A DNA stretch of 64,000 nt from Spirochaetaceae bacterium (lineage in GTDB: Bacteria > Spirochaetota > Spirochaetia > DSM-2461): assembly GCA_965224705.1 (NCBI GenBank), contig OZ245056.1, forward strand, positions 2,432,001-2,496,000. Direction: 5' to 3'. The position numbers were made by a program, and so were the translations under genes. The stretch's first letter is position 1, and each line of letters opens with the position of its first letter. The notes under the pieces were generated by a model. That model worked only from the letters and a program-made list of their open reading frames with translations. It did no database searches and was not told where the DNA came from. Shown here one piece after another: positions 21,790 through 64,000 of this stretch.

Positions 21790-21796
21790 TACTCCA

Positions 21797-21960: not shown

Positions 21961-21961
21961 A

Positions 21962-41002: not shown

Positions 41003-43453
41003 TCAGACTCCAGGATCATGACAGGGAACAGTATTCCAGATTTCAGCTGCATATTCTCTGATTGAACGATCGGAACTGAATCTTCCACTGCCGGCAATGT
41101 TGTGCAGGGCCATTTGATTCCATATCTCCCGATTTGTCCATGTCAGATTTGCTTTTTTTCGTGCTTCACGGTAGGAAGCAAAATCGGTTAATACGAAATA
41201 GTTGTCAGCAGCATTTCCTTCCACTCCATGAACCAGGGAATCATACAATTCCCTGAAGTCATCGCCTGAACCAAGGGTTCCATCGACAAGAGTGTTTAAT
41301 GCACGTTTAAGCATGGGATCTGATTCAAGTATGGCGGCAGGATTGTTTTCTTTTGAATTACGGAGGGCGGCAACTTCCTCAGGAAGCATTCCGAAAATAA
41401 AAGCATTGTCCTCGCCGACTTCGTCAACGATTTCAATATTGGCACCGTCCATAGTGCCCAGGGTAACGGCTCCATTCATCATGAATTTCATATTGCCAGT
41501 CCCTGAAGCTTCTTTTCCGGCAGTGGATATCTGCTGAGATATTTCTGCACCTGGGAAGAGTATCTCGGCAACACTCACCCGGTAATCGGGGATAAAAACA
41601 ACTTTGAGACGTTCGGAGTTTTTTTTATCGTTGTTAATGATATTGGCCGCAGTATGAATCAGATGGATGATTTGCCTGGCTCTTCTATAACCTGGTGCTG
41701 CTTTACCCCCGAAAAAAATAGTTCGGTGCGGTATCATCAATTCCGGATTTTCCTTGAGAATCAACCAGTCGTGTATGACTGAGAGAATGTTCATCAGCTG
41801 ACGCTTGTACTCGTGAAGACGCTTTATCTGTACATCAAACAAGCTGGATGGATCAATGATCTGACCGGTGAGTTGTCGGGTCAGACTGGCCACCCGTATT
41901 TTGTTGATCTGTTTTATTTCGCCCAGATTCAGCAGTATGGCCCTATCACCGGCCAGAGATTTCAGATTCCTGAGCAGTGACAGGTCTTTTGTCCATTGGG
42001 GTCCAATTGTTTCATTCAAAAAACTTGCCAGGGAGGGATTGGCTTTTCTCAACCAGCGTCTCTGCGTAACACCATTTGTTTTATTGTTGAATTTGTCCGG
42101 CCAGAGTTTGTACCAGTCGTTGAGCACACTGGTTTTGAGGATCTCTGTGTGTATGGCGGCAACTCCGTTGATGCTGAAAGAGGCCACAATAGCCAGATGA
42201 GCCATTTTGATCATTCCATCAGCCAGTATGGACATTCTATGATGCCGTTCTCTTTCTCCAGGGACTGTTTTAATGAGTAAGGCCATGAAACATCTGTTAA
42301 TCTCTTCCACAATTTGTATAAGACGTGGACACTCCGCACGAAAAAGGTCAATACTCCATTGCTCCAGTGCTTCGGTCAGAACTGTATGATTCGTATAGGC
42401 AAAGGTTCGAGTGGTTATCTCCCATGCCTGATCCCATTCCAATCCTTCAATATCCAGAAGCAGCCGCATGAGTTCAGGTATGGCGATTACGGGATGGGTA
42501 TCGTTAAGCTGTATAACCGCCTTTTCTGGAAATAATGAGAGGTCTTCACCATAAACAACATGGTATTCCCGGATGATATCCTGCAGAGATGCGGAAGCAA
42601 AAAAATACTGTTGACGCAGCCGTAAAACCTTACCGGCCGGATTGCTGTCATCAGGGTAGAGTATTCTTGTAAGATCTTCCGCCCTGTTCTGAAATTCCAC
42701 AGCTTTCTGATATTCTGTGCTATTGAACAGCTGGAGGTTAAATCCATCCACTGATTCAGCTTCCCACAGTCTCAGGGTATTGATGGTTCCAGTTTTCCAG
42801 CCAATGACAGGCATATCACAGGGTATGGCCCGTACATCCTCCGTATCCACAAGTCTGAACCTGGGTGTACCATCAGAGTTTATTTCACTGACCACGCGTC
42901 CTCCAAAAGGCACGATGACCATTTGATCAGTTCGGCGTATGGACCATGGATCGCTTTTGGCCATCCAGTCATCGGGTTCTTCCACCTGCCTGCCGTTGAT
43001 TATTTCCTGTCGGAACATTCCATACCTGTAGCGTATGCCATATCCACGGGCTGGCAGGTTGAGAGTGGCCAGTGATTCCATAAAACAGGCGGCCAGACGG
43101 CCAAGGCCTCCATTGCCCAGCGCTGCATCCGGTTCAGCATCCTCGGCGGCATTGAAATCAACATCTATTTCCTCGAAAGCCGCGGTAATATCATCTCTCC
43201 AGCCAAGATTGATGAGATTGTTTCCCAATACGCGACCGATGAGGTATTCCGCAGAAAAGTAATATGCCTTCTTCAGTCCGAATGAATGCACATGTTTCTC
43301 GACATCTCTCCACTGATTCCAGAGCAGATCCATGATGGCCCTGGAAACAGCTTCATAGATATCTCTGGAACTCGCTCCAGCAGTTCCATCTCCTGTTTTT
43401 CTATCAATCCAATAGTAAAATCGATCCAGGAACTTCTTCTTATCCAGTTTCAT
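41003..43453 (-). CDS. glgP: Glycogen/starch phosphorylase
   Basis: LGNGGLGRLAACF, QLNDTHP, KRLHEYKRQ, EASGTGNMKFMMNG. Confidence 0.97.
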   Translation of the reverse strand: MKLDKKKFLDRFYYWIDRKTGDGTAGASSRDIYEAVSRAIMDLLWNQWRDVEKHVHSFGLKKAYYFSAEYLIGRVLGNNLINLGWRDDITAAFEEIDVDFNAAEDAEPDAALGNGGLGRLAACFMESLATLNLPARGYGIRYRYGMFRQEIINGRQVEEPDDWMAKSDPWSIRRTDQMVIVPFGGRVVSEINSDGTPRFRLVDTEDVRAIPCDMPVIGWKTGTINTLRLWEAESVDGFNLQLFNSTEYQKAVEFQNRAEDLTRILYPDDSNPAGKVLRLRQQYFFASASLQDIIREYHVVYGEDLSLFPEKAVIQLNDTHPVIAIPELMRLLLDIEGLEWDQAWEITTRTFAYTNHTVLTEALEQWSIDLFRAECPRLIQIVEEINRCFMALLIKTVPGERERHHRMSILADGMIKMAHLAIVASFSINGVAAIHTEILKTSVLNDWYKLWPDKFNNKTNGVTQRRWLRKANPSLASFLNETIGPQWTKDLSLLRNLKSLAGDRAILLNLGEIKQINKIRVASLTRQLTGQIIDPSSLFDVQIKRLHEYKRQLMNILSVIHDWLILKENPELMIPHRTIFFGGKAAPGYRRARQIIHLIHTAANIINNDKKNSERLKVVFIPDYRVSVAEILFPGAEISQQISTAGKEASGTGNMKFMMNGAVTLGTMDGANIEIVDEVGEDNAFIFGMLPEEVAALRNSKENNPAAILESDPMLKRALNTLVDGTLGSGDDFRELYDSLVHGVEGNAADNYFVLTDFASYREARKKANLTWTNREIWNQMALHNIAGSGRFSSDRSIREYAAEIWNTVPCHDPGV

Positions 43454-43462
43454 TCTCTTCTC

Positions 43463-44782
43463 TCATAAGATTTCTGCATGCTCATCAATGATGCGGATGT
43501 TTACAGCATTCCCGTTCACGAAGGGCATGGCTTTAATGTTTTCAAATGCTCTTGTGATATCTTTCACCCTGGCTTCATGGGTAGTAAGGACAACCGGGAC
43601 ACAATCCCCCTCGTGATATTCTTTTTGTACAAAAGAATTAAGGCTTATATTTCTTTCAGCCATTTCAGTTGCGATTTTCGCAACAACACCACTTTTGTCC
43701 TCTACATCGAAACGCAGATAATGTCGGTGGGTGGTGTTCTGCATATCAGCCAGTTTTATCGGCTCATGTTGATCTGGCCAGAGAGGTAGCTTCTGAAACA
43801 GAACAGGCCAGGTTCCTATGACAATGGAGAGAATATCCGATACAGTAGCAGAGGCTGTGGGGTTTCCACCAGCACCCCTGCCATAGTACATGGTATGCCC
43901 TACGGCATTGCCATAGACACTTATCGCATTGAATGGCCCTGAAACAAAGGCAAGAGGGTGGTCGTCAGGGAGAAATACAGGTTTGACCGCCATTTCCAGA
44001 CCCTGATTGGACCGGCGGGCAAAGGCAATGAGTTTGAGAATGTAACCAAGTTCCCTGCCCGTGGTTACATCGAATAAATCAAGATTATCTATTCCTTCAA
44101 CAGGTATGGCATTCAGGGGAATAATCCCGCCGAATGCAAGAGATGCCAGCAGGGTGAGTTTGTGAGCTGCATCGGTTCCATTAACATCCAGTGCGGGATC
44201 GGCTTCTGCAAGTCCATCAGCCTGGGCCTGTCTGAGGGCTTCCTCATAGGTTTTTCCGTGTTCCACCATTTCGGTCAATATGAAATTAGATGTTCCATTG
44301 ACGATACCATATAAGGCGTCGTTTGTGTTGGCTGACAATCCATCGCTCAGAGCTTTTATTACAGGTATTCCACCGGCACAGCAGGCTTCCATTCCAATGC
44401 TGACATTGTTTTCCCGTGCCAGTTCAAAGAGTTCTGTGCCGTGATGGGCCAGGAGGGCCTTGTTCGCCGTTACTACGTGTTTTCCCGCTTTTAATGACTT
44501 TTCAATTATGTTTTTTGCATGGGTGACTCCTCCGACAGTTTCCACTACGAGGTGAATAGAGTCATCTGCCAGAACTTCATCCAGGTTTCTCGTGAACAGG
44601 TTTTCGTCAAGGCCAGCTTCCCTGGCTTTGTTAAATGTTACACTGATCAGGGCTTTGATGACCAGTTTTCTCCCCGTCAAATTATTGAAGCGTTCACTGT
44701 TTTCGTTTAACAAAGCTGCAGTAGCATTGCCGACTGTACCGCATCCTGCAATGGCTATACCAAATTCTTGAGAATTCTCCAT
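43463..44782 (-). CDS. hom: Homoserine dehydrogenase with C-terminal ACT domain
   Basis: GCGTVG, HVVTANKA, GIVNGTSNFIL, AEADPALDVNGTDAAHK; ATG 44782 after GGAGGT. Confidence 0.95.
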   Translation of the reverse strand: MENSQEFGIAIAGCGTVGNATAALLNENSERFNNLTGRKLVIKALISVTFNKAREAGLDENLFTRNLDEVLADDSIHLVVETVGGVTHAKNIIEKSLKAGKHVVTANKALLAHHGTELFELARENNVSIGMEACCAGGIPVIKALSDGLSANTNDALYGIVNGTSNFILTEMVEHGKTYEEALRQAQADGLAEADPALDVNGTDAAHKLTLLASLAFGGIIPLNAIPVEGIDNLDLFDVTTGRELGYILKLIAFARRSNQGLEMAVKPVFLPDDHPLAFVSGPFNAISVYGNAVGHTMYYGRGAGGNPTASATVSDILSIVIGTWPVLFQKLPLWPDQHEPIKLADMQNTTHRHYLRFDVEDKSGVVAKIATEMAERNISLNSFVQKEYHEGDCVPVVLTTHEARVKDITRAFENIKAMPFVNGNAVNIRIIDEHAEIL

Positions 44783-44969
44783 AATACCTCCATGGTGATT
44801 TGAAAGAATGAATGAAGGTGAAATCTTTTTCAAGAGGTTTTATCCCTGAATTAGAAGGATGATGACTGGTTCTCATGTGCAAAACAATGCAAGGGTTGAC
44901 ATGAATTTATGATTTTTTTAGGATTCAGTGACAACTAGAAAATCCAGGATTATGATTACAGGAGCTGAT

Positions 44970-50471: not shown

Positions 50472-51833
50472 TTATCGCAAATATCCCAGCCAGTCCTGCT
50501 GCTGATCAATCATGGTATCCACCATTTCAGACATCCCATGGTAGTTATTGACCATCGGACATGCCAGCACCGCCTGAAGTACGAGATTCCGGCTCTCCTG
50601 TAGTATGGCTTCGGCAGTAAGGTCATACACACCCGCATAGCTCCGCATCAGGGCACCAAATCCCTTTGGATAATCATCAAAGTGTACTGGCTGTATTCCA
50701 TTCTTATGTATGATTCCCGGTACCTCCACCGCAATGGAATCAGGAAAGTCGGGAATCGCCCCATTATTAAGAACATTGACCGCAAGCTCCTCATGACCGG
50801 AATCGGTGATGATTCCTTCAATAATGGGAATGACCCGTTCATGGACATCCAGCGTGATTTCAGACCAGGACTGGTTTGAGAGGGCATAACGGTAGAACTC
50901 ATAAAAGTCCATAATCCCCTTATGATCGGCGGCATCCTGGGCCCAGGAAACATACTCGCCAAGATGGCTGTCCAATGTGATGGGAAGCAGTCCATAAGTC
51001 TCAAAAATAGCCCGAAACAGACGTCTGTCCGTCCAGGGGCGTTTGCTCTCCTGCCTGTTTATCATCCAGCGTTCATTTGTTCCTTCCGTTCGGGGAACAG
51101 TGCCCGTTTCACGGACGTAGTCCCAGATATCAGTAAACCCTGGTTCCTTTTCAAAGAAGGCAGGTGCCTTGTGCCTTATGTCGGGATAAGCATCTTTTCC
51201 GCTGTCAATATAATGGGCCTCAAGCAAAACGGAGAAATGATTCAAGCCTGCTGCCCTGACCTGAAGATTTTCCAATCCGGTGTCCAGGATGGCGGGTAAA
51301 TAACGTTCGAGAGATGCGATTTCATGACACAGTCCAATAAATCTGAGATCTGGATACCTGCGAAGCACTGTTGTGGTGATGGCCGTCATGGGATTTGAGT
51401 AGTTGAATACAATGGCATCGGGACAGTGTAATTCCACATCGCCGCAGATTTCCAGGATGGGAGGAATGATGCGCAGGGCGTGAAAAATCCCGCCGGGACC
51501 GCCATTCTCCCCATAAACTTGATTGACACCGAACTGCAGGGGAGTCTTCCAATCCTGGTCCCAGAGTGTAAATCGATCGCCCACTTCAATGGAAATTATG
51601 ATGAAAGCGGCTCCTTTTAGAGCCTCAGCCCGGTCAGTGGTGGCTGAAAGGGTGAATTCCAGACCATGTTTCTCAATGAATTCACATCCTTTTTTGTATA
51701 CGGCATCCAGAGCCATGCCATTGATGTCCAGCAGAACTAATTCCGTTCCCCTGAGTACCGAACTCTGAAATACTTCACCCATTGTTCCTAAACCGAATTG
51801 GGAACTTCCTGCTCCAATGAGAACAATTTTCAT
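50472..51833 (-). CDS. Family 4 glycoside hydrolase (NAD-dependent alpha-glucosidase/galactosidase)
   Basis: KIVLIGAGS, GENGGPGG, NYSNP, GLCHE, AGLNHF. Confidence 0.92.
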   Translation of the reverse strand: MKIVLIGAGSSQFGLGTMGEVFQSSVLRGTELVLLDINGMALDAVYKKGCEFIEKHGLEFTLSATTDRAEALKGAAFIIISIEVGDRFTLWDQDWKTPLQFGVNQVYGENGGPGGIFHALRIIPPILEICGDVELHCPDAIVFNYSNPMTAITTTVLRRYPDLRFIGLCHEIASLERYLPAILDTGLENLQVRAAGLNHFSVLLEAHYIDSGKDAYPDIRHKAPAFFEKEPGFTDIWDYVRETGTVPRTEGTNERWMINRQESKRPWTDRRLFRAIFETYGLLPITLDSHLGEYVSWAQDAADHKGIMDFYEFYRYALSNQSWSEITLDVHERVIPIIEGIITDSGHEELAVNVLNNGAIPDFPDSIAVEVPGIIHKNGIQPVHFDDYPKGFGALMRSYAGVYDLTAEAILQESRNLVLQAVLACPMVNNYHGMSEMVDTMIDQQQDWLGYLR

Positions 51834-52029: not shown

Positions 52030-53367
52030 TTATTGCTTTACCGTCCTGACACGTCCGACAGACTCCAGGGAGTCTGCGAAACTGGCCATCACCTGAATTG
52101 CTTTCCGGTAGTGTTCTTTCTCCAATGCAGTCATAAAGGTAGTTCCGGATGTGCGATGGGAGGCGAATACCGGCGCGATACTCTGTTCAGCCATTCTGGT
52201 CAGCACAGCAGGGATGAGAGCTGCTTCATCTCCAAGATTCTCACCCACCGCCCCGACTATACAGAGGTCCGACCGTTTCTCAACCTCACTTAGATGCAGA
52301 TCTTCCTTCATGGTATCAATATCTCCATCCCCAGGATTCCGATTTTCAAGGGGTTCCAGAATGACCAGAAGTGTATCACACTGGCATGCTGAATACAAAA
52401 TTTTCCATCCCATCGCGGCCAAACTCTCCAGGATTTTCAACTGTAGAGAAAGGTTGTCCCCCAGATGGGCATTCTGAAATCGACAGACGGATACACCCAT
52501 CTTTCCGGCAACCCCGGTAATTCCCGGATGGGACTTCCTTTTTTTAATCACGATCATGGTTCCCGGAGCTTCGGGGATATTGGTATTCCGGATATTGATT
52601 GGAATTCCGGCGGTGCTGACAGGCTGAATAGCCTCTTCATGAAACACTTTTGCCCCCAGGGCCGAAAGTTCGCGAAGTTCCCTGAAAGAAACCTCTTCTA
52701 TGGGAGCAGGATCATCCACGATGCCGGGATCCGCTGCCAGCAGTCCCGATACATCGGTCCAGTTTTCATAAACCCGGGCCCCTGCGCCACGAGCTATCAC
52801 AGCACCGCTGATGTCGGACCCGCCGCGGCTGAAGGCCTTTATACCCCCTCTGGCATCCTGACCATAGAATCCTGGAATAACCACCTGGCTGTCGGGGGAA
52901 ACAGCCTGATCGATCAGTTTGTAGCTCTCCGACGAAAGTTTCCCCCGGGCATCAAATCGGATGATTTCTTCGGCATCCAGGAAGGAAAATCCAATGTATT
53001 CGGCAATGAGGCGGGCCAAAAAATGCTCCCCCCTGGATACGGCATAGTCATAGGATTTTTCACTCTGAATCCGGTCTTGAGCCTGATCAAGAAGCTCTTT
53101 CAGTCCTGAGCCAACTTTCAGATCGGCGGCTATCTCCAGAAATCTCTCACGGATGGGCTCAAAGTCTGCTTCAATTGACTTCTCCCTCACAGCAGCCTGG
53201 TAACAGGCGATTAAACGGTCGGTTATCTTTACATCGTTTCTGGTCCGCTTTCCTGGTGCCGATACAACGATCAATCGTCGCTCATTGTCTGATTGGACAA
53301 TGTCGGCACTTTTTTTTATTTGATCTGCCGACGCCAGAGAGGTTCCGCCGAATTTGACAACTTTCAT
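52030..53367 (-). CDS. Aspartate kinase with divergent regulatory domain
   Basis: KVVKFGGTSLA, VVSAPGKR, SRGE, FSRGGSDISG, ENWTDVSG..ADP. Confidence 0.93.
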   Translation of the reverse strand: MKVVKFGGTSLASADQIKKSADIVQSDNERRLIVVSAPGKRTRNDVKITDRLIACYQAAVREKSIEADFEPIRERFLEIAADLKVGSGLKELLDQAQDRIQSEKSYDYAVSRGEHFLARLIAEYIGFSFLDAEEIIRFDARGKLSSESYKLIDQAVSPDSQVVIPGFYGQDARGGIKAFSRGGSDISGAVIARGAGARVYENWTDVSGLLAADPGIVDDPAPIEEVSFRELRELSALGAKVFHEEAIQPVSTAGIPINIRNTNIPEAPGTMIVIKKRKSHPGITGVAGKMGVSVCRFQNAHLGDNLSLQLKILESLAAMGWKILYSACQCDTLLVILEPLENRNPGDGDIDTMKEDLHLSEVEKRSDLCIVGAVGENLGDEAALIPAVLTRMAEQSIAPVFASHRTSGTTFMTALEKEHYRKAIQVMASFADSLESVGRVRTVKQ

Positions 53368-53375
53368 AGCATCCT

Positions 53376-54557
53376 CTACTTGATGAATAGTTTTTGTGGG
53401 TATTCGATAAGCTTTTCACAGCCTGTTTCGGTAACAAGAAGGGGTTCGGAACACTCCACACCGCAGGTATCCAGCCAGATTCCCGGCATGAAGTGAATCG
53501 TCATCCCCGGTTTCAATACAGTTTTATCCCCTGGACGAAGGCTCAGGGTATGCTCCCCCCAGTCCGGGACATAGTTCAGACCAAAGGAATAGCCCACTCG
53601 AGAGGGTTTCTCAATACCCGTTCCGGCAAGATAACTGCGCCATTTCTCCTCCACCTCTTCGGCGGTAACTCCGGGTTTAATGAAATCCAGCGTTCCATTC
53701 AATCCCCTTATGACGGTATCCGAAATCCGCTGCAGATCCTCCGGCGGCTTTCCCAGGTAGAGAGTACGCGACAGCGGTACATTGTAGTGGTGACGGGCCC
53801 CCGCCAGTTCCAACAGCACTACATCTCCCTTTTGATAGTTTCTGTCTGGATTAAAGGTTAGATGGGCGGTACTTGTTCTCTCTGCCGTTGGCATTATGGG
53901 AAAGAGAGCCGTGGGATCTCCGCCGAATTCCCCGGTTCCCCAAATCTGAGCCTTCGCAACATTCGCCGCTGCGTCTTTTTCAGGAACTCCAGGGGCAATA
54001 CTTTCGACGGCCGCATCCATCACTTTCCTGCAGATTTCACTGGCCTCCCGGATTACGGCGATTTCCGCAGGTGATTTAATTGTTTTTATCCAGTTCACCA
54101 ACCCGGTGGCATCCATCTTCCTTGAGTGGGGGAGTTCTTCTTCCAGCTGGGTGTACATCCTGGCGTTGAACCAGTAGCCATCCATGTCTAAACCCATAGT
54201 CCGTTTTTCCCACCGCCTTTCTTTGATTATTTCCGCCACGTAGCTCATTGTATGAATATATCGGGATTGTACATATTCATCCCTGTATCCCCATATATGA
54301 TCCTGGGGAAGAAAAGACGTAATCCGGGCCCCATTGGAATCCTGCTCCCGGCCAAACCAGTGGGGAGTATCATCATCCAGTGAAAGGAGGAGCCCCTGAT
54401 GGACATAGAAACTCCAGCCATCATAACCGGAAAGATAGTTCATCTGCCCAGGATCGGTGATCAGGAGTATTTCTATTCCCCGGTGATCCATGGACTGCTG
54501 GGTAAGTCGAATTCGCTGTTTGTATTCCTCCACACCGAAGACAGTCTGATTTCTCAT
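53376..54557 (-). CDS. eutD: Ectoine hydrolase EutD/DoeA-like (M24 fold), paralogue 2
   Basis: GYDGWSFYVHQ, AHLT, LELAG, PDWGEHTLSLRPGD, HFMPGIW. Confidence 0.88.
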   Translation of the reverse strand: MRNQTVFGVEEYKQRIRLTQQSMDHRGIEILLITDPGQMNYLSGYDGWSFYVHQGLLLSLDDDTPHWFGREQDSNGARITSFLPQDHIWGYRDEYVQSRYIHTMSYVAEIIKERRWEKRTMGLDMDGYWFNARMYTQLEEELPHSRKMDATGLVNWIKTIKSPAEIAVIREASEICRKVMDAAVESIAPGVPEKDAAANVAKAQIWGTGEFGGDPTALFPIMPTAERTSTAHLTFNPDRNYQKGDVVLLELAGARHHYNVPLSRTLYLGKPPEDLQRISDTVIRGLNGTLDFIKPGVTAEEVEEKWRSYLAGTGIEKPSRVGYSFGLNYVPDWGEHTLSLRPGDKTVLKPGMTIHFMPGIWLDTCGVECSEPLLVTETGCEKLIEYPQKLFIK

Positions 54558-54566
54558 TTGACCTTC

Positions 54567-55562
54567 CTAACGGGGAATCTGGATTCCGATTCCCCGCTCC
54601 CTGGCAAGTTTGCAGGCGCCCAGGGCAATCATTGTATCCTGCACACCAACCCCGGTCAGGTCGCAAACGGTGAAGTCATCTTCATTGGTTCGCCCGGGAT
54701 GGACTCCATCGATGAAGGTTCCCAATTCAGTCATGGGGGAGTCAGCGGTGAGAATTCCCTGCTCGACGGCAGATCGAACTTCGCCCAGACGCAGAGCCTG
54801 GCTTTTCATGTCACAGGCCAGAAGGTCAGCCCTGGCAAGTACCTCTGCTTCCAGTTCCTGTTTCTCTTCCGTGTCACTTCCCATGGCGGTGATGTGGAGG
54901 TTGGGGTGGATCCAGTCGGCCTTGATAAAACCCTCGCGGGCAGGGGTGGTGGTTACAACAACCTGACTTTCCCTCACCACCTCTTCTGCGGTGGTACTCT
55001 TAATAACCGTTACTCCCAGTTCAGATTCCATATCGTTGACATAGGCATTCTTCACATCCTCATTGCTTGAAGAATACATTCGGATTGTTTTTATGTCACG
55101 CATTAAAGCCAGGCCCCGCATCTGCCAGCGTGCCTGGGCTCCGGCTCCGATGACTCCAGCCTGACTGGCGTTTTCAGGGGCCAGGTATTCAGCGGCAATT
55201 GCTCCGGCTGCGCCTGTCCGGACATGGGTGAGATAGCCATTATCCAGTAAAACAGCATCGAGAAAACCAGTCTCTGCGGAAACAACCAGCATGAGACCGC
55301 TTCCTGAAGGAAGACCCAGTCGGGAATTCTGGAAAAAACCGGAAGCAACTTTGACGGCCATTCTGTCCATGCCCTTGATGAAGGCACTTTTTATATCAAC
55401 TTCACCCTGTTTTTCATCGACCGGAAGCATCATAATGGGGGGAACAATTGCATTTCCCCTCTGTAGTTCCTTGAATCCGAGGGCTGTATTTTCTACCACG
55501 GCATGATCCAGTTTGACCAGATCCATCAGTTCTTTCTCATTGACTATAATGATAGGTTCCAT
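54567..55562 (-). CDS. eutC: EutC-like cyclodeaminase/mu-crystallin family protein
   Basis: GEVDIKSA, KVASGFF.N..LGLPS, LLDNGYLT.VRTGAAG, DLTGVGVQDT; ectoine context. Confidence 0.88.
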   Translation of the reverse strand: MEPIIIVNEKELMDLVKLDHAVVENTALGFKELQRGNAIVPPIMMLPVDEKQGEVDIKSAFIKGMDRMAVKVASGFFQNSRLGLPSGSGLMLVVSAETGFLDAVLLDNGYLTHVRTGAAGAIAAEYLAPENASQAGVIGAGAQARWQMRGLALMRDIKTIRMYSSSNEDVKNAYVNDMESELGVTVIKSTTAEEVVRESQVVVTTTPAREGFIKADWIHPNLHITAMGSDTEEKQELEAEVLARADLLACDMKSQALRLGEVRSAVEQGILTADSPMTELGTFIDGVHPGRTNEDDFTVCDLTGVGVQDTMIALGACKLARERGIGIQIPR

Positions 55563-55571
55563 CTTCTCCTC

Positions 55572-56552
55572 CTATATATGTTTTGAAATAATACTGCGGT
55601 AACGGGCAGGATCGACACTGCTGCCGCTTATGACCAGGCCGACCTTCCTGTTCGTCACATCCAATTTTCCGGTTTGTACAGCTGCAATTCCCACCGCCGA
55701 AGCTCCTTCAATCACAAGGCTGTGTTCCGTAAAGGCGTATACCATACCCACTTCAATTTCCTCTTCGGTGATCACTATGTGATCATCTACAAACTTTTGA
55801 ATCAGAGGAAGAGTGTAGTTGTTTTCAATACCAATTCCGCCAAGCAGAGAGTCGGCATGCGTGTCTTTTTCCTCCACCTGCACCGGTTTTCCGGCCTTTA
55901 AACTCTCCAGCATGGCAGGAGAACGTTTTATTGTAACACCGACAATTCTTATGGAAGGTTTTATGGTTTTGGCCGCCAGGGCAATTCCCGCCAGAAGTCC
56001 GCCACCGGAGAGCGGCACCAGAATAACATCCATATCAGGCTCAGCCTGGAGCATTTCCAGAACGGTGGTTCCCTGTCCCGATACAATGGCAGGATCGTCA
56101 AAGGGGACTACCGGTATGTACTCCTCCTTTTCCATCAGCTCAAAGTAACGGCCCTCCGCTTCATCCTGGCAGGAACCGAATATCTCTACGTCTGCACCGA
56201 GGGCTTTAATCTTTTTCACCCGGTACTCGGGAACATTCTGCGAAAGACAAACCACCGCCCTGACACCTGTTTTTCCGGCAGCGAAGGAAACCGCTTTTCC
56301 ATGGTTTCCCGTGGAGAAGGTAATAACTCCACGCTGCCTCTCTTTTTCATTGAGGGATAGAATTTTATTGGCCGCCCCCCTTATCTTGAATGAGCCGGTA
56401 TTCTGGAGGCATTCAAGTTTCATAAAAATCTGATCCGCTCCCATGCTGTCTGCCAGGGCAGGCGATTCCCAGAGCGGTGTCTCCCAGATCATTGTCTTTA
56501 TTCTTTTTTTTGCCCTGTAGACATCCTCCAGGGTCGGCAGCCTGTGCTCCAC
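55572..56552 (-). CDS. eutB: EutB-like PLP-dependent dehydratase (threonine dehydratase family)
   Basis: KLECLQNTGSFKIRGA, STGNHG, VPLSGGGL, ADSLLGGIG..N.YT; GTG 56552 after AGGAG. Confidence 0.88.
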   Translation of the reverse strand: MEHRLPTLEDVYRAKKRIKTMIWETPLWESPALADSMGADQIFMKLECLQNTGSFKIRGAANKILSLNEKERQRGVITFSTGNHGKAVSFAAGKTGVRAVVCLSQNVPEYRVKKIKALGADVEIFGSCQDEAEGRYFELMEKEEYIPVVPFDDPAIVSGQGTTVLEMLQAEPDMDVILVPLSGGGLLAGIALAAKTIKPSIRIVGVTIKRSPAMLESLKAGKPVQVEEKDTHADSLLGGIGIENNYTLPLIQKFVDDHIVITEEEIEVGMVYAFTEHSLVIEGASAVGIAAVQTGKLDVTNRKVGLVISGSSVDPARYRSIISKHI

Positions 56553-56563
56553 TGCAGGAACTC

Positions 56564-57742
56564 CTATTTGGTGAAGATATCCATGGGGTATTCGAAAAGC
56601 TGCATACATCCCTCTTCAGTGACGATGAGGCTGGCATCAATTTCGAATCCAACATCCTCAAACCAGATGCCGGGTATCAGATGAAGGGCCATATTGGGTT
56701 TTAATACAGTTTTATCGCCGGGGCGGATACTGATTGTGTGCTCACCCCAGTCGGGAGGATAGTTGACACCTATGGAGTATCCTAAACGGGATTCTTTCAC
56801 AACTGTTGAGCCGCTGATGGCCTTCCGCCATCCTGCTTCCACCTCTTCAGCGGTGACTCCGGGCTTGATAAGCTCAAGAGTTTTTAAGAGACCATCGATA
56901 ACCACCGCTGCGGTATCCTTCATCAGTTGAGGCGGCTCGGGACCCAGAAAAATGGTTCTGGCAATGGGGCAGTGGTAGTGCCTGTAACACCCCGCCAGTT
57001 CCAGCAAACAGGCCTCATTCTCCTTGAAGGTCGCATCCGACCAGGTAAGGTGGGGAGTCTTTGTGGCTTCACCGGCCATTATGAGGGGTACGATGGCGGG
57101 ATAATCTCCGCCAAACTCCCTGGTTCCCGTGTATTCGGCCTGGACAATGGCGGCGGCGGCATCACACTCACGCACCCCAACATTGATACTTGAAATGGCT
57201 GCATCCATCACTTTTTCGGCAATATTGCCAGCCCGGTGCATCATTTCTATCTCAGCATCTGACTTAATCACCCTTACCCAGTTCACCAGGGCATTGGCAT
57301 TTTTCAACGTTCCCCGGGGCAGATCCTTTTCCAATTCCACATAACACTGGTGGGTGAAGAAAAACTGGTCCGATTCCACACCAATAATCCTGTTATCCCA
57401 CCCCTTTTCCCTTATCACGTCCGCCACAAAATTCATGGGATGTTTCACCAGGGAGTGAACATAGTCATCGGCGTAGCGGCGAATGTTATCTTTGGAGAGG
57501 AAGGTGGTGATGTCCGCCCCATTGCCGTCCATCTCCCGTCCCAGCCACATGGGTTCATCCTGGTCCAGAGAAACCAGAACCCCCTGGTGAACATAGAAAC
57601 TCCAGCCATCGTAGCCGGTAAGGTAGTTCATATTGGCAGGATGACTCACCAGAAGAAGATCAATCCCCCATGCAGACATTGATTCTTTGGTCGCCCTCAC
57701 TCTACGGGCATATTCTTCACGCGTGAATACTGGCATATGCAT
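56564..57742 (-). CDS. eutD: Ectoine hydrolase EutD/DoeA-like (M24 fold), paralogue 1
   Basis: GYDGWSFYVHQ, GGDYPAIVP, PHLTW, ELAGCYRHYHCP, YPPDWGEHT. Confidence 0.9.
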   Translation of the reverse strand: MHMPVFTREEYARRVRATKESMSAWGIDLLLVSHPANMNYLTGYDGWSFYVHQGVLVSLDQDEPMWLGREMDGNGADITTFLSKDNIRRYADDYVHSLVKHPMNFVADVIREKGWDNRIIGVESDQFFFTHQCYVELEKDLPRGTLKNANALVNWVRVIKSDAEIEMMHRAGNIAEKVMDAAISSINVGVRECDAAAAIVQAEYTGTREFGGDYPAIVPLIMAGEATKTPHLTWSDATFKENEACLLELAGCYRHYHCPIARTIFLGPEPPQLMKDTAAVVIDGLLKTLELIKPGVTAEEVEAGWRKAISGSTVVKESRLGYSIGVNYPPDWGEHTISIRPGDKTVLKPNMALHLIPGIWFEDVGFEIDASLIVTEEGCMQLFEYPMDIFTK

Positions 57743-57778
57743 CTCCTTTCCCTGTATGGTGACTGTTGAACAGCATGG

Positions 57779-58519
57779 CTACATAAATCCGTTATATTGA
57801 CGGGGGACCACGGCGGAATAGACATAATCTATCATCGTGTGATAGTCAAAGACCGGTAAACCTGTGGCCTCCCTGACAGCCCTGGCATAGGGTGGGAGGA
57901 GGCTGCACTCAAGAAGGATCATCTCCACCCGGGGATCAGATTCAACAATCCGCTCTGCCTCCACCACCACCTCCTTCTCAATACGGTTCTGATCGAGATA
58001 GCCTGCCTCATTAAAAACCGCCTCATGAAAGTGTTCCGATTTCTCAAGTCCCCTCATCACCAGATCGGAACCATCCTTGATCCCAATCTGCCGCAGAATG
58101 AAATCATCCAGGGAAGGAAGATTGGCGGTAATAACCCCAATTTTTCCCTTTCGTGAAAGCATCATGCGCATGAATGGGATTTGAAGCAGGCTGGAGAGGA
58201 ATACAGGAATTTTTACGGCTTCCTGGATATCCCTTTGGAAAAGTGCCATGAATCCGCAGTCTCCTGTGATTGCTCTGACACCTTCGGTCTCCAACTCCCG
58301 TGCTCCCTTTTTAAGGCTTTCGACCAGACTCATATCGTGCTCCATGATTCTGGCAACCGAAAAACCAGGGATTCGCTGAAATCTCACAGGATAATCATAG
58401 CTTGTGGCGTTGGCGACATCCCCGGGTATGAAGGGAACGTAGTTTTCCAATAGAATGATACCAATGGCCTCGCCATAACTGAGCTGCCCGGGTTTTACTT
58501 TATATACCATATCAATCAA
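57779..58519 (-). CDS. Asp/Glu racemase-superfamily protein
   Basis: IPGDVANA, two-cysteine pattern AITGDCGF and ILLECSLLPPY. Confidence 0.8.
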   Translation of the reverse strand: MIDMVYKVKPGQLSYGEAIGIILLENYVPFIPGDVANATSYDYPVRFQRIPGFSVARIMEHDMSLVESLKKGARELETEGVRAITGDCGFMALFQRDIQEAVKIPVFLSSLLQIPFMRMMLSRKGKIGVITANLPSLDDFILRQIGIKDGSDLVMRGLEKSEHFHEAVFNEAGYLDQNRIEKEVVVEAERIVESDPRVEMILLECSLLPPYARAVREATGLPVFDYHTMIDYVYSAVVPRQYNGFM

Positions 58520-58525
58520 CCAGCT

Positions 58526-59806
58526 TTAACGCACAAATGCATGATTGGGCAGCCAGGTGGCAATTCCCGGGAAGAAAATCAGCAGAGCAGTAGCCAGAAG
58601 GAGGATCATGATGAAGGGTGGTGTATTCTTGATGACTTCAAAATAAGGCCGCCGGAATACTAGCTGGGCCGTAAAAATATCACACCCAAAGGGTGGCGTG
58701 GCCGATCCAATCGCTGCCTGAAGGGTAACAATGGTTCCAAGGAGAACGGGGTCAACCCCTGTGGAAATTACATAGGGCTGAAAGATCGGGCTCAATACAT
58801 AGATCGCCACTATGGGATCGACAAACATACAGGCCACGAAGTAAGCCGCCGCTATGGTGAAAATCAACTGGAGCTGACCAGGATCAGTCCCCAGTATAAC
58901 AGGCATAATTGCCTGGGGGATCCTTAAAAAGCTGATAAGCCAGGAAAATGCCTGTCCCGCTCCAACCAGAACAAACACAACTCCGGTGATAACTCCTGTA
59001 TCCATCAGGATCTTCACCAGTTTCTTGAAACTGAGGGTACGATAGACCAGACCTTCAAGAAGAAGCGCATAGAGTACGGCTACCGCCGCCGCTTCGGTGG
59101 GACTGAATATTCCCGCATAGATTCCGCCGACGATGATCAGGGGAAATCCGAGTACCAGTATCCCCTGTTTTACAGCCTTCCAGCGTTCTGCCCAGGAGGC
59201 CCGGGGTATGACTCCTACTTTTTTTATTCGGGAGTAGAAGTAGCAGTAAACCGAAAAAAGTAAGAAAATCATAAGTCCCGGGATAATACCTGCCAGAAAG
59301 AGCTTCCCCACAGATGTGGAGGTGACGACTCCATACACGATGAATCCAATGCTTGGAGGAATTAAAAAGGCGATGTCACTGGAATTGATTATCAAACCCA
59401 GGGTAAATGAGCTTTCATAGCCTGCCTTTAAAAGCATGGGCCGCATGGTTCCGCCAATGGCAGCCACCGTTGCCTGAGTAGAACCGGAAACCGCTCCAAA
59501 GAGGGTACAACTGGCATTTGTGGTAATTGGGAGTCCGCCGTGGATATGACCCACGAAAGATTTTACCATATTAATCAGCCGGGAAGCCACCTGACCGGAG
59601 GTGATGATACTCGCTCCCAGGATGAACATGGGAACACAAACTAATGCGGGAGGAGAAATCCCCGTCAATACCTGCTGAACCAGGACCTGCATGTTGAAAG
59701 TGGGGATGTTGATTTCCAGGTGCAGCAGCAGCGATCCAAGAATGACAACCATAAAGGGAAATCCCAGAAGGAGCATCCCTACCATGCTTATCCAGAGCAA
59801 ATTCAT
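58526..59806 (-). CDS. teaC: TRAP transporter large permease (TeaC/UehC-like)
   Basis: SCTLFGAVSGSTQATV, IINSSDIAFLIPPSIG, IGSATPPFGCDIFTA as recalled for TeaC. Confidence 0.88.
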   Translation of the reverse strand: MNLLWISMVGMLLLGFPFMVVILGSLLLHLEINIPTFNMQVLVQQVLTGISPPALVCVPMFILGASIITSGQVASRLINMVKSFVGHIHGGLPITTNASCTLFGAVSGSTQATVAAIGGTMRPMLLKAGYESSFTLGLIINSSDIAFLIPPSIGFIVYGVVTSTSVGKLFLAGIIPGLMIFLLFSVYCYFYSRIKKVGVIPRASWAERWKAVKQGILVLGFPLIIVGGIYAGIFSPTEAAAVAVLYALLLEGLVYRTLSFKKLVKILMDTGVITGVVFVLVGAGQAFSWLISFLRIPQAIMPVILGTDPGQLQLIFTIAAAYFVACMFVDPIVAIYVLSPIFQPYVISTGVDPVLLGTIVTLQAAIGSATPPFGCDIFTAQLVFRRPYFEVIKNTPPFIMILLLATALLIFFPGIATWLPNHAFVR

Positions 59807-60393
59807 ATCTCTACCTCCTGGTAGTCGAGTTCCTCTTCATAATCACTCTGCTGCTCCGGTGAAAGCCATACACTTTTCTCAACAATGTTTTTAGCAAAGG
59901 TTCTTACATATTGGATGCCTGCGGAAAAGAACCCGATGGGGGTGATGATCAGGGGAATCCAGGAGGGGATTCGGAGGGCAGAACTCTCCTGTCCCAGCTC
60001 AAACACCTTGGCCATATATTGGAAGGAGTGGAATGCCATTATGAACATCACTATGGCACTGACGGCTGATATCACGAAAATAAAAACCTTTTCCACCTTC
60101 TCGTTCATTAGATCCAGAAAGGCTCCCATTCGTATATGCCGTGCTTTTCTGGCGGCGTAGCTTATCCCCACGAAGGTGGTGAAAATGATGAGGAATTCAG
60201 ATACCTCATCGGCAAAATAAATGGCCTGGAAGAAGGTTCGGGCGATAACGTTACTGATTAACAGAATCGCAAGGAAGCTGATACAGAGACAGAGGGCCCC
60301 CACTTCAAAGGCATCCACACCTCGTCCCAAATAATGGAAAAACCCTCTCTTCCGTTCTTTACTCTCGTCGTTTGAAGTATTTTCGATATCCAT
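59803..60393 (-). CDS. teaB: TRAP transporter small permease (TeaB/UehB-like)
   Basis: Four TM segments, GISYAARKARHIRM. Confidence 0.85.
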   Translation of the reverse strand: MDIENTSNDESKERKRGFFHYLGRGVDAFEVGALCLCISFLAILLISNVIARTFFQAIYFADEVSEFLIIFTTFVGISYAARKARHIRMGAFLDLMNEKVEKVFIFVISAVSAIVMFIMAFHSFQYMAKVFELGQESSALRIPSWIPLIITPIGFFSAGIQYVRTFAKNIVEKSVWLSPEQQSDYEEELDYQEVEI

Positions 60394-60452
60394 ACTGTCC
60401 CCTGTATTGAGTAACGAAACGACAGACCATGCCGCCGTTCCGTTAGAAATTA

Positions 60453-61541
60453 CTATTTGATGCCCAGGGCTGCCTTGGCATCCGCGATGTCTTTTAGAAG
60501 TGTGTCCAGCACCAGCTGCGCATCACTGCCACCCATTTCAACATACTTTGGATAAACAGTTTCTGCAGCGGCCTTGAATTCGGCGATGGTTTCGTCATCA
60601 AACTCATGGAACTCAATGGAAGGCTTATCCGCCATGATCGCCGCTTTTGCCCTGGCATTTACATCGTCGATCCATTGAGCAGAGGGAATAACCGCATCGG
60701 CCCAGAATTTCTTCATATGATCCTGCTGCTCCCTGGTCAGAGAGTCGAAAAAGGCGGCATTGGCCGTAGGAATTCCAAGAAAAGGTTCGGCCCAGAATTG
60801 CGTGAAGTAGTCGGTCACTTCGTAGAACTTCATAGAGTGATCGGCAAACAGGGGGTTCACCTGGGCATCAATGAGACCGGTCTGCAAGGCACCGTAAACC
60901 TCACCGTAACTCATGGGAGTGGGGCTCATGCCATAGGCACGGAAGTCTTCGATAAGGATTTTAGAACCCATGAGACGGGTTTTCATTCCCTGGAGGTCGT
61001 CCATTCCCTTTACTTCGGCTTTGGAAGTCATCCACTGCCACCCTTCGTAAACTATTCCTAAAGGAACCAGGTCATTTTCACGGAATTTTTCCTCGATAAG
61101 AGGCATGAATTTACCATTCTTCAAAACCCACTGGAGGGTTTCAGGCATTTTTTCCCTGGGCCAGAGATAGTGAAGGGCAAGGACCTGTACCTGGGGAACG
61201 AAGCTCGAAATCCAGGCGTAGTCGGAGAATACGAATTCCACCACGCCGAGCTGTGCCAACTCATTGATATCCCTGGTATCTCCAAGGGATCCGTAGGGGT
61301 AAACGGTGATGTCGATCTTTTCATCGGTGTTTTCCCTCATGTAGTCTGCGAATTTCTCCGCCCAGACGGTCATGAAGTCCCCTTCAATTTCTTCAGAAGC
61401 AAGTTTGGCTTCTATTACATCACTGTCACCCGCGTCACCCGCAGTCTCTTCCTGCCCGGCAGCAAAAAGACCATGACTCAAACAAATCAGAGCCAAAATC
61501 ATTGTTAAACTGATAATCTTTGTAAACATAGTTTTCTCCAT
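60453..61541 (-). CDS. teaA: TRAP substrate-binding protein (TeaA/UehA-like)
   Basis: Signal peptide, EEIEGD, KTRLM, GEVYGALQTGLIDAQVNP. Confidence 0.82.
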   Translation of the reverse strand: MEKTMFTKIISLTMILALICLSHGLFAAGQEETAGDAGDSDVIEAKLASEEIEGDFMTVWAEKFADYMRENTDEKIDITVYPYGSLGDTRDINELAQLGVVEFVFSDYAWISSFVPQVQVLALHYLWPREKMPETLQWVLKNGKFMPLIEEKFRENDLVPLGIVYEGWQWMTSKAEVKGMDDLQGMKTRLMGSKILIEDFRAYGMSPTPMSYGEVYGALQTGLIDAQVNPLFADHSMKFYEVTDYFTQFWAEPFLGIPTANAAFFDSLTREQQDHMKKFWADAVIPSAQWIDDVNARAKAAIMADKPSIEFHEFDDETIAEFKAAAETVYPKYVEMGGSDAQLVLDTLLKDIADAKAALGIK

Positions 61542-61608
61542 TTCTTATTTGCGAGAGGGGTCAATCCTCTCTTCCGACTTTTCCTGAATCATTCCAGGCT
61601 GTTTCAGT

Positions 61609-62805
61609 TCAATCATTACCTCCTTTTTTTAAATACTCTATTGCCGTTCTTACGAAGAACTCAACTCCCAGAACCATGACATCCTCATCAATATTGAATC
61701 GAGCATTGTGATGGGGGAAATCAGTACCTTTCTTTCTATCAGCAGCTCCGAGAAAGGCAAAAACAGAGGGAACTCGAGAAGAAAAGGCCGAGAAATCCTC
61801 ACCTGCCATGGAGGCATGTTCTACCACCCTGTCAACTCCCCCCAATATCTTCTCCGCTATTCCACGGCTGAGGGCTGCCATCTTTACATCATTGATCACC
61901 GAGCAGTTTTCCTGTTTCAGTTCCACTTCAATTGTACAGCCATGGACAGCGGCGACTTTCTGTGCCAGATCCATCAATTTATCCGATGGACTGGAGCCGT
62001 TTTCCGGTTCATCGGCATAGAGGTAGCGAATTGATCCTTCCAGAACCACTTTGTCGGGGATAATATTGTTCTTTGAGCCGCCCTTGATGACACTGAACAT
62101 CAAGACCGTAGGATTCATGAGGCTGATTTCCCGGGTCTGAATTCTCTGGGCGGTCAGGACAATGTCAGAGGCAGCGATGATCGGGTCAATGGCGGTTTCG
62201 GGGTAGCCGGTGTGGCCGCCGTATCCTTTGACCGTCATCTTAAACACATCCATACTGGCCATAACTGCTCCGGCCTTGATTCCCATGGTTCCACTGGGAA
62301 GGGAGGTCCAGATATGGAGGCCCAGGGCTGCATGGGGGGAGGGATTTTTCATCACTCCATGCTCAACCATGAGTTCAGCTCCCGCAACCTCTTCGTTAGG
62401 TTCAAAGACAAACTTGACAGAACCCTCCAGAACCTCACGGAATTCACAGAGAACTTTGGCGGCGATCAACAGCATAGCCGTATGGGCATCATGACCACAG
62501 GCGTGCATTTTTCCGGGTATTTCAGACTTATAGGGAACGTCATTCTCCTCCTGTACCGGCAGTGCGTCCATGTCCGCCCGCAAAAGGAGTACCGGACTGG
62601 AGAGCTTTCCCTCAAGAACGGCTGTAATACCGGTGCCGGCTATTCGCCTGGGTTCCAATCCGAGATCCTTCAGGTAGGATTCAACGATCCCGGAGGTTCG
62701 ATGCTCCTCAAATCCCAATTCAGGATAACGGTGAAAGTCCCTCCTTAGCTCTATAAGTTCCTTTTCCAGCTCCCTGATGCGTTTTCGGATAGGGTCCCCG
62801 TCCAT
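61609..62805 (-). CDS. M20D family amidohydrolase (candidate N-acetyl-diaminobutyrate deacetylase)
   Basis: RRDFHRYPELGFEE, LRADMDALP, MHACGHDAH, EPNEE, GEDFS, HHNARF; substrate is inference from context. Confidence 0.9.
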   Translation of the reverse strand: MDGDPIRKRIRELEKELIELRRDFHRYPELGFEEHRTSGIVESYLKDLGLEPRRIAGTGITAVLEGKLSSPVLLLRADMDALPVQEENDVPYKSEIPGKMHACGHDAHTAMLLIAAKVLCEFREVLEGSVKFVFEPNEEVAGAELMVEHGVMKNPSPHAALGLHIWTSLPSGTMGIKAGAVMASMDVFKMTVKGYGGHTGYPETAIDPIIAASDIVLTAQRIQTREISLMNPTVLMFSVIKGGSKNNIIPDKVVLEGSIRYLYADEPENGSSPSDKLMDLAQKVAAVHGCTIEVELKQENCSVINDVKMAALSRGIAEKILGGVDRVVEHASMAGEDFSAFSSRVPSVFAFLGAADRKKGTDFPHHNARFNIDEDVMVLGVEFFVRTAIEYLKKGGND

Positions 62806-62808
62806 AGG

Positions 62809-63834
62809 CTATAGTAAATCTCTTTCTACAAGGGTTTCGACGATCTGAATGGCATTGAGAGCTGCTCCCTTGCGTACATTATTGGAAACAATCCACAGAT
62901 TGAGCCCATTTTCAATGGAAGAATCCTCTCGAATGCGTCCTACCAGGGTTTCATCCACATCGGTGCAGAATAGAGGCATGGGGTAGAGATTTTTTGCGGG
63001 ATCATCCTGAAGAATGATACTGGGAGCGTTTTTCAGGAGTTCCCGGGCCCTCTCTCGAGAGATATTTTTTTCGGTCTCAATGTTGACAGATTCGGAATGT
63101 CCCACCGCTACAGGAATTCGAACACAGGTGGCGGTTACCTTGATGTTTTCATCACCCATGATTTTTCGGGTTTCAAATATCATTTTATTCTCTTCTTTAG
63201 TGTATCCCCCATCCTGAAAGACATCAATGTGGGGGATGGCGTTAAAGCCCAGTTGATAGGTAAACCCTTTAGAATCCTGAATCTTTCTGGTTTTCAGGAA
63301 TTGTTCACTTTCATCATATAGAGAGTCGATTCCCTTCTTACCGGCACCGGCAGCGGCCTGGCAGGTGGACACAACCACCCTTTTAATCCTTCCTTCGTCA
63401 TGAAGGGGCTTTAATACAACCACCATCTGAATTGTGGAACAGTTGGGGTTGGCTATGATTCCTTTATGCCAGTCAAGATCCTGGGGGTTTACCTCGGGAA
63501 CCACCAGGGGACATTGATCGTCCATCCGCCAGGCAGAACTATTGTCGACTACAATGGCACCCATCTCGACTGCATCTGGAGCCAGGGCTTCACTGGCCGC
63601 CCCACCGGCGGAGAAAATGGCGATATCGATGTCCTTGAAGTTGTCTTTCTTTGCCTCTTTTACCTTACAGGGCCTGCCGTTAAACAGGATTTCTTTTCCA
63701 GCATTCATCGCCACATCCAGGGGGCGGAATTCTGTCACCGGAAAATTTCTCCTTTCCAGAGTTCGTATCATTTCACCGCCCACAAGTCCCATGGCTCCCA
63801 CAACGGCTATGTTGTAAGCTGTTTTCTTTTTCAT
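62809..63834 (-). CDS. asd: Aspartate-semialdehyde dehydrogenase (phosphorylating)
   Basis: VVGAMGLVG, DNSSAWRM, IIANPNCSTIQ, GHSES, NNVRKGAALNA; ATG 63834. Confidence 0.96.
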   Translation of the reverse strand: MKKKTAYNIAVVGAMGLVGGEMIRTLERRNFPVTEFRPLDVAMNAGKEILFNGRPCKVKEAKKDNFKDIDIAIFSAGGAASEALAPDAVEMGAIVVDNSSAWRMDDQCPLVVPEVNPQDLDWHKGIIANPNCSTIQMVVVLKPLHDEGRIKRVVVSTCQAAAGAGKKGIDSLYDESEQFLKTRKIQDSKGFTYQLGFNAIPHIDVFQDGGYTKEENKMIFETRKIMGDENIKVTATCVRIPVAVGHSESVNIETEKNISRERARELLKNAPSIILQDDPAKNLYPMPLFCTDVDETLVGRIREDSSIENGLNLWIVSNNVRKGAALNAIQIVETLVERDLL

Positions 63835-63841
63835 TAAGACT

Positions 63842-64000
63842 TCATACCTCCTCCAGGGGAAGCTTTTTCGCTTCAATGTCCTGAATGACACTGGCGATAA
63901 TCTCTATACCCTTCATTAGAAGCTCTTCCGTTATTACCAGAGGCGGTAACAAACGGGCTACGTTGGAATGGTGTCCGCCAACCTCAATCATAACACCCCT
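63842..64000 (-). CDS. C-terminus of a class III aminotransferase (diaminobutyrate transaminase-like), truncated by window end
   Basis: Own translation: RGVMIEVGGHHSNVARLLPPLVITEELLMKGIEIIASVIQDIEAKKLPLEEV*; not in the ORF track. Confidence 0.8.
   Translation of the reverse strand, partial: RGVMIEVGGHHSNVARLLPPLVITEELLMKGIEIIASVIQDIEAKKLPLEEV

Follow-up and report, generated by a model that had tools for sequence, protein, structure and literature searches.

A conserved spirochaete operon for probable ectoine catabolism with a predicted NAD-type Asd

Known ectoine clusters and the spirochaete operon

The ectoine breakdown pathways that have been tested are, as far as the accessible text of the relevant studies goes, proteobacterial (PMC5924519, PMC8739950, PMC7192451), and one of these studies, in its available part, still describes what EutA, EutB, and EutC do as uncertain (PMC8739950). 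A 2026 study describes putative clusters from Thermodesulfobacteriota and Bacillota, and its accessible part also mentions related putative clusters in haloarchaea (PMC13188858). Here, we examined a 64,000-nucleotide stretch of a Spirochaetaceae bacterium genome (contig OZ245056.1; hereafter the window), one end of which is occupied by a long operon encoding homologues of several ectoine catabolism proteins. This operon is real and conserved, and it is probably a variant of ectoine catabolism that falls outside canonical membership on EutE, EutA, Ssd, DoeD, and EnuR. Judging from its sequence, we would put the probability that it serves ectoine catabolism at roughly 0.75.

With the tested proteobacterial eut/doe clusters, the operon shares an EutD-type hydrolase, EutB, EutC, a Ueh-type tripartite ATP-independent periplasmic (TRAP) transporter, a diaminobutyrate (DABA) transaminase step, and its organization as one co-oriented cluster. 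Unlike those clusters, it has two EutDs, an M20D enzyme for EutE, a PRK07475 racemase for EutA, Dat for DoeD, aspartate semialdehyde dehydrogenase (Asd) plus aspartate kinase (Ask) for Ssd/DoeC, IclR for EnuR/AsnC, and no Usp. Of the canonical combinations, it lacks eutD beside eutE/doeB, Ssd/DoeC with Atf/DoeD, and EutA with EnuR, while EutB and EutC homologues are both present. In the doeBDAC cluster of Methylomicrobium alcaliphilum, the same deacetylation step is filled by DoeB2 (NF038260), a deacetylase 22% identical to Halomonas DoeB (PMC7192451, accessible text); that cluster retains DoeC and DoeD and has no transporter, and the operon M20 enzyme scores below the DoeB2 cut-off. The putative clusters of the 2026 study share with the operon a layout of 9-13 co-oriented genes, usually with two eutD copies and no eutE or ssd, and those of Bacillota also include an amidohydrolase as here, but have hom plus an aldehyde dehydrogenase and PucR (PMC13188858, accessible part). 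The initial annotation knew of no description of this architecture, which holds only in part: two-eutD clusters without eutE or ssd are already reported from Thermodesulfobacteriota, whereas spirochaetes and aspartate kinase are absent from the text of that report. Specifically, its available main text does not contain 'spiroch', 'aspartate kinase', or 'anaerob', nor do its available supplements contain 'spiroch', 'asd', or 'aspartate kinase'; the grey genes in its Figures 6-7 may include asd or ask. A literature search, in which coverage of subscription papers was thin, turned up no study of anaerobic ectoine degradation, of ectoine use by spirochaetes, or of a catabolic Asd/Ask.

On the minus strand, positions 52030-63891 of the window hold 11 complete, co-oriented open reading frames (ORFs), and the 3' end (~53 codons) of an aminotransferase gene lies at 63842-64000, the whole gene encoding 464 aa in the genome. 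Our ORF and family calls agree throughout with the 12 co-oriented genes, the gene order, and the family labels of the initial annotation. Reading the genome beyond position 64000, as it had advised, revealed a 13th gene upstream, encoding an IclR regulator, together with a promoter and an operator-like site. The transcription order is iclR-dat-asd-M20-dctP-dctQ-dctM-racemase-eutD1-eutB-eutC-eutD2-ask, with gaps of -46 to +67 nt between annotated ORFs and of 100 nt between iclR and the aminotransferase gene. The features are as follows:

Genome 2498102-2498166: sigma70-type promoter of iclR plus operator-like site AAC-N4-GTTCAAAT in the first codons of that gene, from cross-genome comparison
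L002:3337-4131 (outside the window), minus strand: IclR-family regulator, likely repressor (iclR in 23/23 loci)
63842..64000 (whole gene L002:1842-3236), minus strand: Dat-family DABA:2-oxoglutarate transaminase, 3' end (TIGR00709)
62809..63834, minus strand: phosphorylating Asd with a predicted NAD-type coenzyme site, P-L-D-V-A (passes asd_B)
61609..62805, minus strand: M20D amidohydrolase that likely replaces DoeB/EutE as N-acetyl-DABA deacetylase (passes TIGR01891)
60453..61541, minus strand: TRAP solute-binding protein, UehA/TeaA type (PDB matches 3FXB, 2VPN)
59803..60393, minus strand: TRAP small subunit, DctQ (PF04290; 38% to a UehB-type gene)
58526..59806, minus strand: TRAP large subunit, DctM (TIGR00786; 57% to a UehC-type gene)
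57779..58510, minus strand: two-cysteine protein of the Asp/Glu racemase family (PRK07475) that is not orthologous to EutA (C85/C202 invariant)
56564..57742, minus strand: EutD-like amidine hydrolase 1 (E 2e-107 to Halomonas DoeA, 6TWK)
55572..56609, minus strand, start probably GTG at 56552: EutB-like pyridoxal phosphate-dependent dehydratase (NF005680, EutB identity)
54567..55562, minus strand: EutC-like cyclodeaminase/imine-reductase family protein (passes PRK08291)
53376..54557, minus strand: EutD-like amidine hydrolase 2, from an old paralogue clade (E 4e-104 to Halomonas DoeA)
52030..53367, minus strand: aspartate kinase (PRK09034 type), kinase motifs intact, ACT domains eroded

EutD-like matches (E<=1e-60) occurred in 42 of 401 genomes of the class, in 4 of 401 genomes in an evenly drawn sample of the phylum, and in none of the 37 other genomes in the family to which the window belongs. 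Loci were retrieved for part of the 42 genomes and, after removal of three duplicates, an orthologue of EutD1 was encoded in 35 distinct ones; 23 loci came from distinct genomes with enough flanking sequence, our own genome included, although kin among them are not independent. Across these 23, iclR, dat, M20, and eutB were found in all, asd, TRAP, and eutC in 22, the racemase gene in 21, a second eutD in 17, and ask in 14, and such recurrence indicates that the arrangement is not due to chance. In the phylum of a Tindallia metagenome-assembled genome (MAG), 13 of 301 genomes had an EutD-like match, and most of the loci examined there pair EutD with M20 and TRAP genes, none showing asd or dat. 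The named closest relatives, on which the assignment to spirochaetes is based, belong to Spirochaetales, Sediminispirochaeta, and Sphaerochaetaceae. In both S. smaragdinae (ADK79709.1, ADK79715.1) and S. bajacaliforniensis, the accession numbers of asd and eutD1 differ by six, the spacing expected from the gene order, which points to an asd-to-eutD1 stretch in the cultured type strains S. smaragdinae DSM 11293 and S. bajacaliforniensis.

The importer, the upstream enzymes, and the substrate

According to our proposal, the TRAP system would import ectoine/hydroxyectoine, after which EutD would open the ring to yield N-acetyl-DABA or hydroxy-N-acetyl-DABA, with the two paralogues possibly dividing ectoine and hydroxyectoine between them. 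The M20 enzyme would then remove acetate. In the hydroxy branch, the racemase would adjust the stereochemistry, EutB would dehydrate, and EutC would reduce the resulting imine to give DABA, from which Dat would move the 4-amino group to 2-oxoglutarate and leave aspartate semialdehyde.

The matches of the two M24 proteins to Halomonas DoeA (listed above) compare with ~1e-26 to Xaa-Pro dipeptidases (PepQ) and ~1e-5 to creatinase, the latter scored for copy 1, and both copies retain H238/E255/R326/Y329/E374 (Halomonas numbering) in alignments, with His238/Glu255 and Arg326/Tyr329/Glu374 being what we take to be the EutD/DoeA active-site positions. In a 57-row tree (quick search, midpoint root, long outgroups), EutD1 and EutD2 formed two separate clades, each with a Shimodaira-Hasegawa-like approximate likelihood-ratio (SH-aLRT) support of 99, apart from proteobacterial DoeA and within a group of Priestia, clostridial, and haloarchaeal proteins. 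The creatinase and Xaa-Pro peptidase readings of the pair, a grouping that would have overturned the first assignment of these proteins to EutD, were rejected given the far stronger DoeA matches. One source labels EutD as 'creatinase' and many label it as 'Xaa-Pro dipeptidase', so such genes are probably widely mis-annotated.

The best solved matches of the solute-binding protein were 3FXB (E 8e-46), which is UehA according to the accessible text of PMC5924519, and TeaA 2VPN (E 7e-42). An alignment of 26 operon-type rows, which include two duplicates and one MAG labelled Bacillota, retained E9, E121, R144, F187, and F209 in 26/26, presumably ligand-binding positions of TeaA-type proteins. The same alignment shows the pocket substitutions F66W and W167Y, and a new F14 is present in 25/26. 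The aminotransferase narrowly passed the Dat model TIGR00709 (403.8 vs a cut-off of 401.6), which suggests DABA as an intermediate. The M20 enzyme passed TIGR01891 and missed the DoeB2 model NF038260 (271 bits vs 550); it falls in a 19-row clade with clostridial EutD-linked M20s (support 97) in which 18 of 19 rows have a PNEE motif. EutB was 44-47% identical to annotated EutB and EutC 43-45% identical to annotated EutC, the comparison set being the annotated Sinorhizobium meliloti and Phaeobacter clusters, and the EutB and EutC families were the top NCBIfam matches of the two proteins, with EutC passing PRK08291. For the racemase, C85 and C202 were invariant in 17/17 rows, there was no sequence match in the PDB, its Atlas label reads only 'Asp/Glu racemase family', and its neighbours in three plasmids are amino-acid ABC importers without eut genes.

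The initial annotation had proposed that several steps are filled by non-orthologous enzymes, and this was borne out, as EutA, DoeB, DoeC, and EnuR are all replaced by other families and the transaminase is only 26-28% identical to DoeD/Atf. BLAST gave no match between the racemase and EutA or between the M20 enzyme and DoeB. Genome-wide, no match was found for EutA, DoeB, Usp, or EhuB, and EnuR gave only short partial matches. DoeC is not in the operon, and the best Ssd-like aldehyde dehydrogenases (33-35%) lie elsewhere in the genome.

Several of these results count against ectoine itself as the substrate. Both EutD copies missed the cut-offs of TIGR02993 (456 and 417 vs 613) and NF038259 (214 and 176 vs 575), EutB just missed NF005680 (404.5 vs 413), and EutC missed TIGR02992 (345 vs 472). 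In the solute-binding protein, the aromatic residue (W/F) at position 188 is Ala in 26/26 rows, and N184 is N or, often, Q. EutD-like proteins are also encoded in operons of other kinds, alongside either a ureohydrolase and a carbamoylase or an aldehyde:ferredoxin oxidoreductase (AOR) and a serine hydroxymethyltransferase (SHMT)-like gene, so family membership leaves the substrate unfixed. An ectoine relative, either another cyclic amidine or a linear N-acetyl/hydroxy diamino acid, might thus feed DABA by the same chemistry. This would agree with the pocket changes (W/F188 to A and the new F14), with the Eut scores below cut-off, with the fixed differences near the active site of the EutD2 clade (HTM, AHLTF, YVPDWGE), and with a close EutD1 relative (66%) found beside ureohydrolase and carbamoylase genes in L064. 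However, the operon combines EutB, EutC, and EutD with a Ueh-type TRAP and a DABA transaminase, as the tested ectoine clusters do, and S. smaragdinae, the cultured host known by name, is an obligate halophile according to the accessible text of PMC3035371. We therefore consider a different substrate to be quite unlikely and favor ectoines.

In two clusters, L016:7841-12821 (G036) and L064:248-6484 (G180), the EutD-like gene is accompanied by genes for a racemase, a ureohydrolase, and an N-carbamoylase. This gene set suggests that the pathway there acts on a cyclic guanidine or another relative of the amidine type. In L047-L050, EutD, M20, and mostly TRAP genes occur with AOR-like and SHMT-like genes replacing dat, asd, and ask, and these clusters are possibly another anaerobic solution. 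A second Tea/Ueh-like TRAP (solute-binding protein 32% to the UehA-type) is encoded elsewhere in our genome at L095:896-6356 (genome 2980896-2986356), together with an M20 hydrolase resembling YgeY and a very distantly related M24 protein.

Asd, aspartate kinase, and the fate of aspartate semialdehyde

The operon Asd and Ask share with the biosynthetic aspartate kinase and NADPH-dependent Asd their enzyme families, catalytic motifs, and a reversible reaction, and differ in the predicted NAD-type site, the eroded ACT domains, and their place in importer-led catabolic operons (PMC3276109, accessible text, for the biosynthetic pair). In 24/24 operon rows (22 genomes), the second strand of Asd ends with P-L-D-[VI] and the glycine loop reads GA[MLC]G. 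Of 120 top homologues, 118 were scored, and 117 of these have the Asp. The operon Asd retains the catalytic NPNCST. By comparison, four solved Asds have GATG or GVSG plus [AG]-S-x-R-S, and the second, separate Asd of the same genome has GATG and A-S-x-R-S; this signature of the NADP-dependent biosynthetic enzyme (GATG, [AG]-S-x-R-S) is absent from the operon Asd. Its Asp36/Val37/Met39 correspond to Ala36/Ser37/Arg39 in the Asd of Streptococcus pneumoniae, where Ser37 and Arg39 lie in the coenzyme adenine pocket and the reaction is reversible (PMC3276109, accessible text). Given Asp in place of Ala-Ser-x-Arg, we predict that the operon Asd uses NAD and runs in the oxidative direction.

The catalytic motifs of Ask are likewise intact, and the protein missed the PRK09034 cut-off (386 vs 434 bits). 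Over 15 operon rows, mean identity was 61% in the kinase domain and 37% in the ACT region, and the Ask of this genome matched only the Pfam kinase domain, with no ACT match; it thus has neither the PRK09034 score nor the recognizable ACT domains of a feedback-regulated aspartate kinase. Aspartyl-phosphate plus ADP favors ATP formation. In the last two steps of the proposed chain, Asd would convert aspartate semialdehyde, inorganic phosphate, and NAD+ to aspartyl-phosphate and NADH, and Ask would use ADP to give aspartate and ATP, where aerobes use the irreversible DoeC. For the chain as a whole, that is, anaerobic import and breakdown of ectoine/hydroxyectoine to aspartate with ATP-forming reversal of Asd/Ask, we see the odds as about even.

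Several points weigh against an ATP-forming ending. The selection of NAD over NADP by an acidic residue at that Rossmann-fold position is an established general rule that the operon Asd is only predicted to follow, and one ectoine-type locus (L042) has no asd. ACT erosion is also seen in stand-alone Ask copies, and ask is present in only 14 of the 23 loci. In addition, the operon ask is the sole aspartate kinase found in this genome (G000) and in its sister genome G009, and this genome also has hom, thrC, and dapB homologues, so Ask probably also serves biosynthesis. Finally, G009 (L017:6880-8938) has lost a stretch of ~12.5 kb that reaches from the promoter of iclR into eutD2, and it has kept ask intact beside a eutD2 stub. 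By eye, the deletion junction carries a decayed copy of a MITE-like (miniature inverted-repeat transposable element) repeat.

These points would fit ectoine catabolism with no net ATP, in which Ask is biosynthetic and either hydrolysis or a drain into Lys/Thr/Met synthesis consumes aspartate semialdehyde or aspartyl-phosphate. Such a pathway is consistent with a sole kinase that survives the loss of the G009 operon, with the lack of ask in 9 of 23 loci, and with hom in the window at 43463-44833 and the existence of thrC and dapB homologues. On the other hand, ask is the last operon gene in 14/23 loci, including genomes with a second kinase (in G032, G036, and G440, the operon ask stands beside one in a frame of 818-834 aa). 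The deletion in G009 looks recent, since the stub is 92-98% identical, and the retention of ask there therefore says little. The acyl phosphate made by an NAD-type Asd could also be used by any reversible kinase of the cell, and for L020-L022, which carry no ask, a related kinase is encoded at another place in the genome. The dN/dS of ask against G009 was 0.25, compared with 0.04-0.11 for four neighbours, but this mostly predates the deletion and cannot settle the role of ask. Overall, a pathway without net ATP seems to us a minority possibility, unlikely but a real contender.

The same genes could also be read in the anabolic direction, with Ask, Asd, and Dat making DABA for ectoine-type solutes that the TRAP system recaptures for osmoprotection, since ask, asd, and a DABA transaminase gene are the first steps of ectoine synthesis (PMC7192451, accessible text). 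However, no EctA scored over cut-off in 5/5 genomes, no EctC match was found in the genome (although the positive control of that search was also silent), the operon products include hydrolases and an enzyme of the deacetylase type, and the Asd motif is NAD-type. An anabolic or osmoprotective role is thus very improbable.

Returning to ATP-forming catabolism, its broadest form would be that spirochaetes ferment ectoine with substrate-level ATP through a portable module, an NAD-switched Asd and a deregulated Ask run in reverse, which is also found in at least one unrelated catabolic operon with a TAXI importer, a thiamine diphosphate (ThDP) enzyme, and an aminotransferase. We advance this only tentatively, at slightly worse than even odds. 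If true, it would represent a new ATP-yielding fermentation reaction and would supply the anaerobic sink that has been missing for a major osmolyte of the sea. The operon offers a full alternative parts list, which may bear on ectoine removal in anoxic saline sediments and animal hosts. The NAD-using Asd and ATP-forming Ask are a sharp, cheaply testable prediction, for which cultured type strains are at hand. As for other contexts of the gene, Asp-type asd is paired with ask alone in G001 and G012. A second operon type, at L082:1588-11050 (G021) and L080:3484-10707 (G735), combines a TAXI-TRAP importer, a ThDP enzyme, a class I aminotransferase, and an Asp-type asd, with ask present in G021 and absent in G735. 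The G735 Asd is 79% identical to the window Asd, closer than most ectoine-operon Asds.

Regulation, host, and neighbouring features

Comparison of iclR starts revealed TTGACA, a -10 box, and a start codon ~35 nt downstream of where the -35 box begins, followed by the operator-like site AAC-N4-GT(T/A/C)CA, also written AAC-N4-GT(T/A)CAAAT. TTGACA lies 47-49 nt before this site in 20 of 21 distinct loci, 7 loci without an alignment anchor having been dropped, and the codon over the GT of the site encodes S, R, C, or G (10/5/3/3). Four different amino acids across the same GT argue for constraint at the DNA level. We predict that the iclR transcript is leaderless, and the site is likely the IclR operator, through which IclR would repress the operon from its own first codons. 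A genome-wide search for the operator gave one further match, inside a gene at 165852, which was treated as chance. General scans for promoters and terminators gave about as many matches as expected by chance (21 vs 17.8 and 18 vs 16.9, respectively), and the promoter scan missed the iclR promoter. When the operon stretch was divided into 30 bins, contigs of three mollusc metatranscriptome runs from one study covered 13, 16, and 13 of them; for a control stretch of 30 bins, the figures were 12, 9, and 20. This coverage indicates that the organism was present in the runs and does not indicate induction. The runs holding the DNA are mollusc metagenomes where labelled, and the best holders may be the source itself.

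A probably fermentative lifestyle, as first suggested for this organism, fits the anaerobic profile of the genomes, since heme-copper and bd oxidases were found in none of 5 and an FeFe hydrogenase in all 5, although this genome does have sdhA despite lacking the oxidases. It also has an aspartase/fumarase-family gene, and that enzyme together with sdhA could take aspartate to fumarate and succinate.

The 3' flank, which is not part of the operon, holds the homoserine dehydrogenase gene (hom) mentioned above and genes for a glycogen phosphorylase (41003-43453) and an alpha-galactosidase-like protein (50472-51833). The MITE-like repeat, ~165 bp with terminal inverted repeats, occurs in the window at 16985-17150 and 21796-22127 and at ~160-170 places in the genome, and it shows very high contig depth in the RNA runs.

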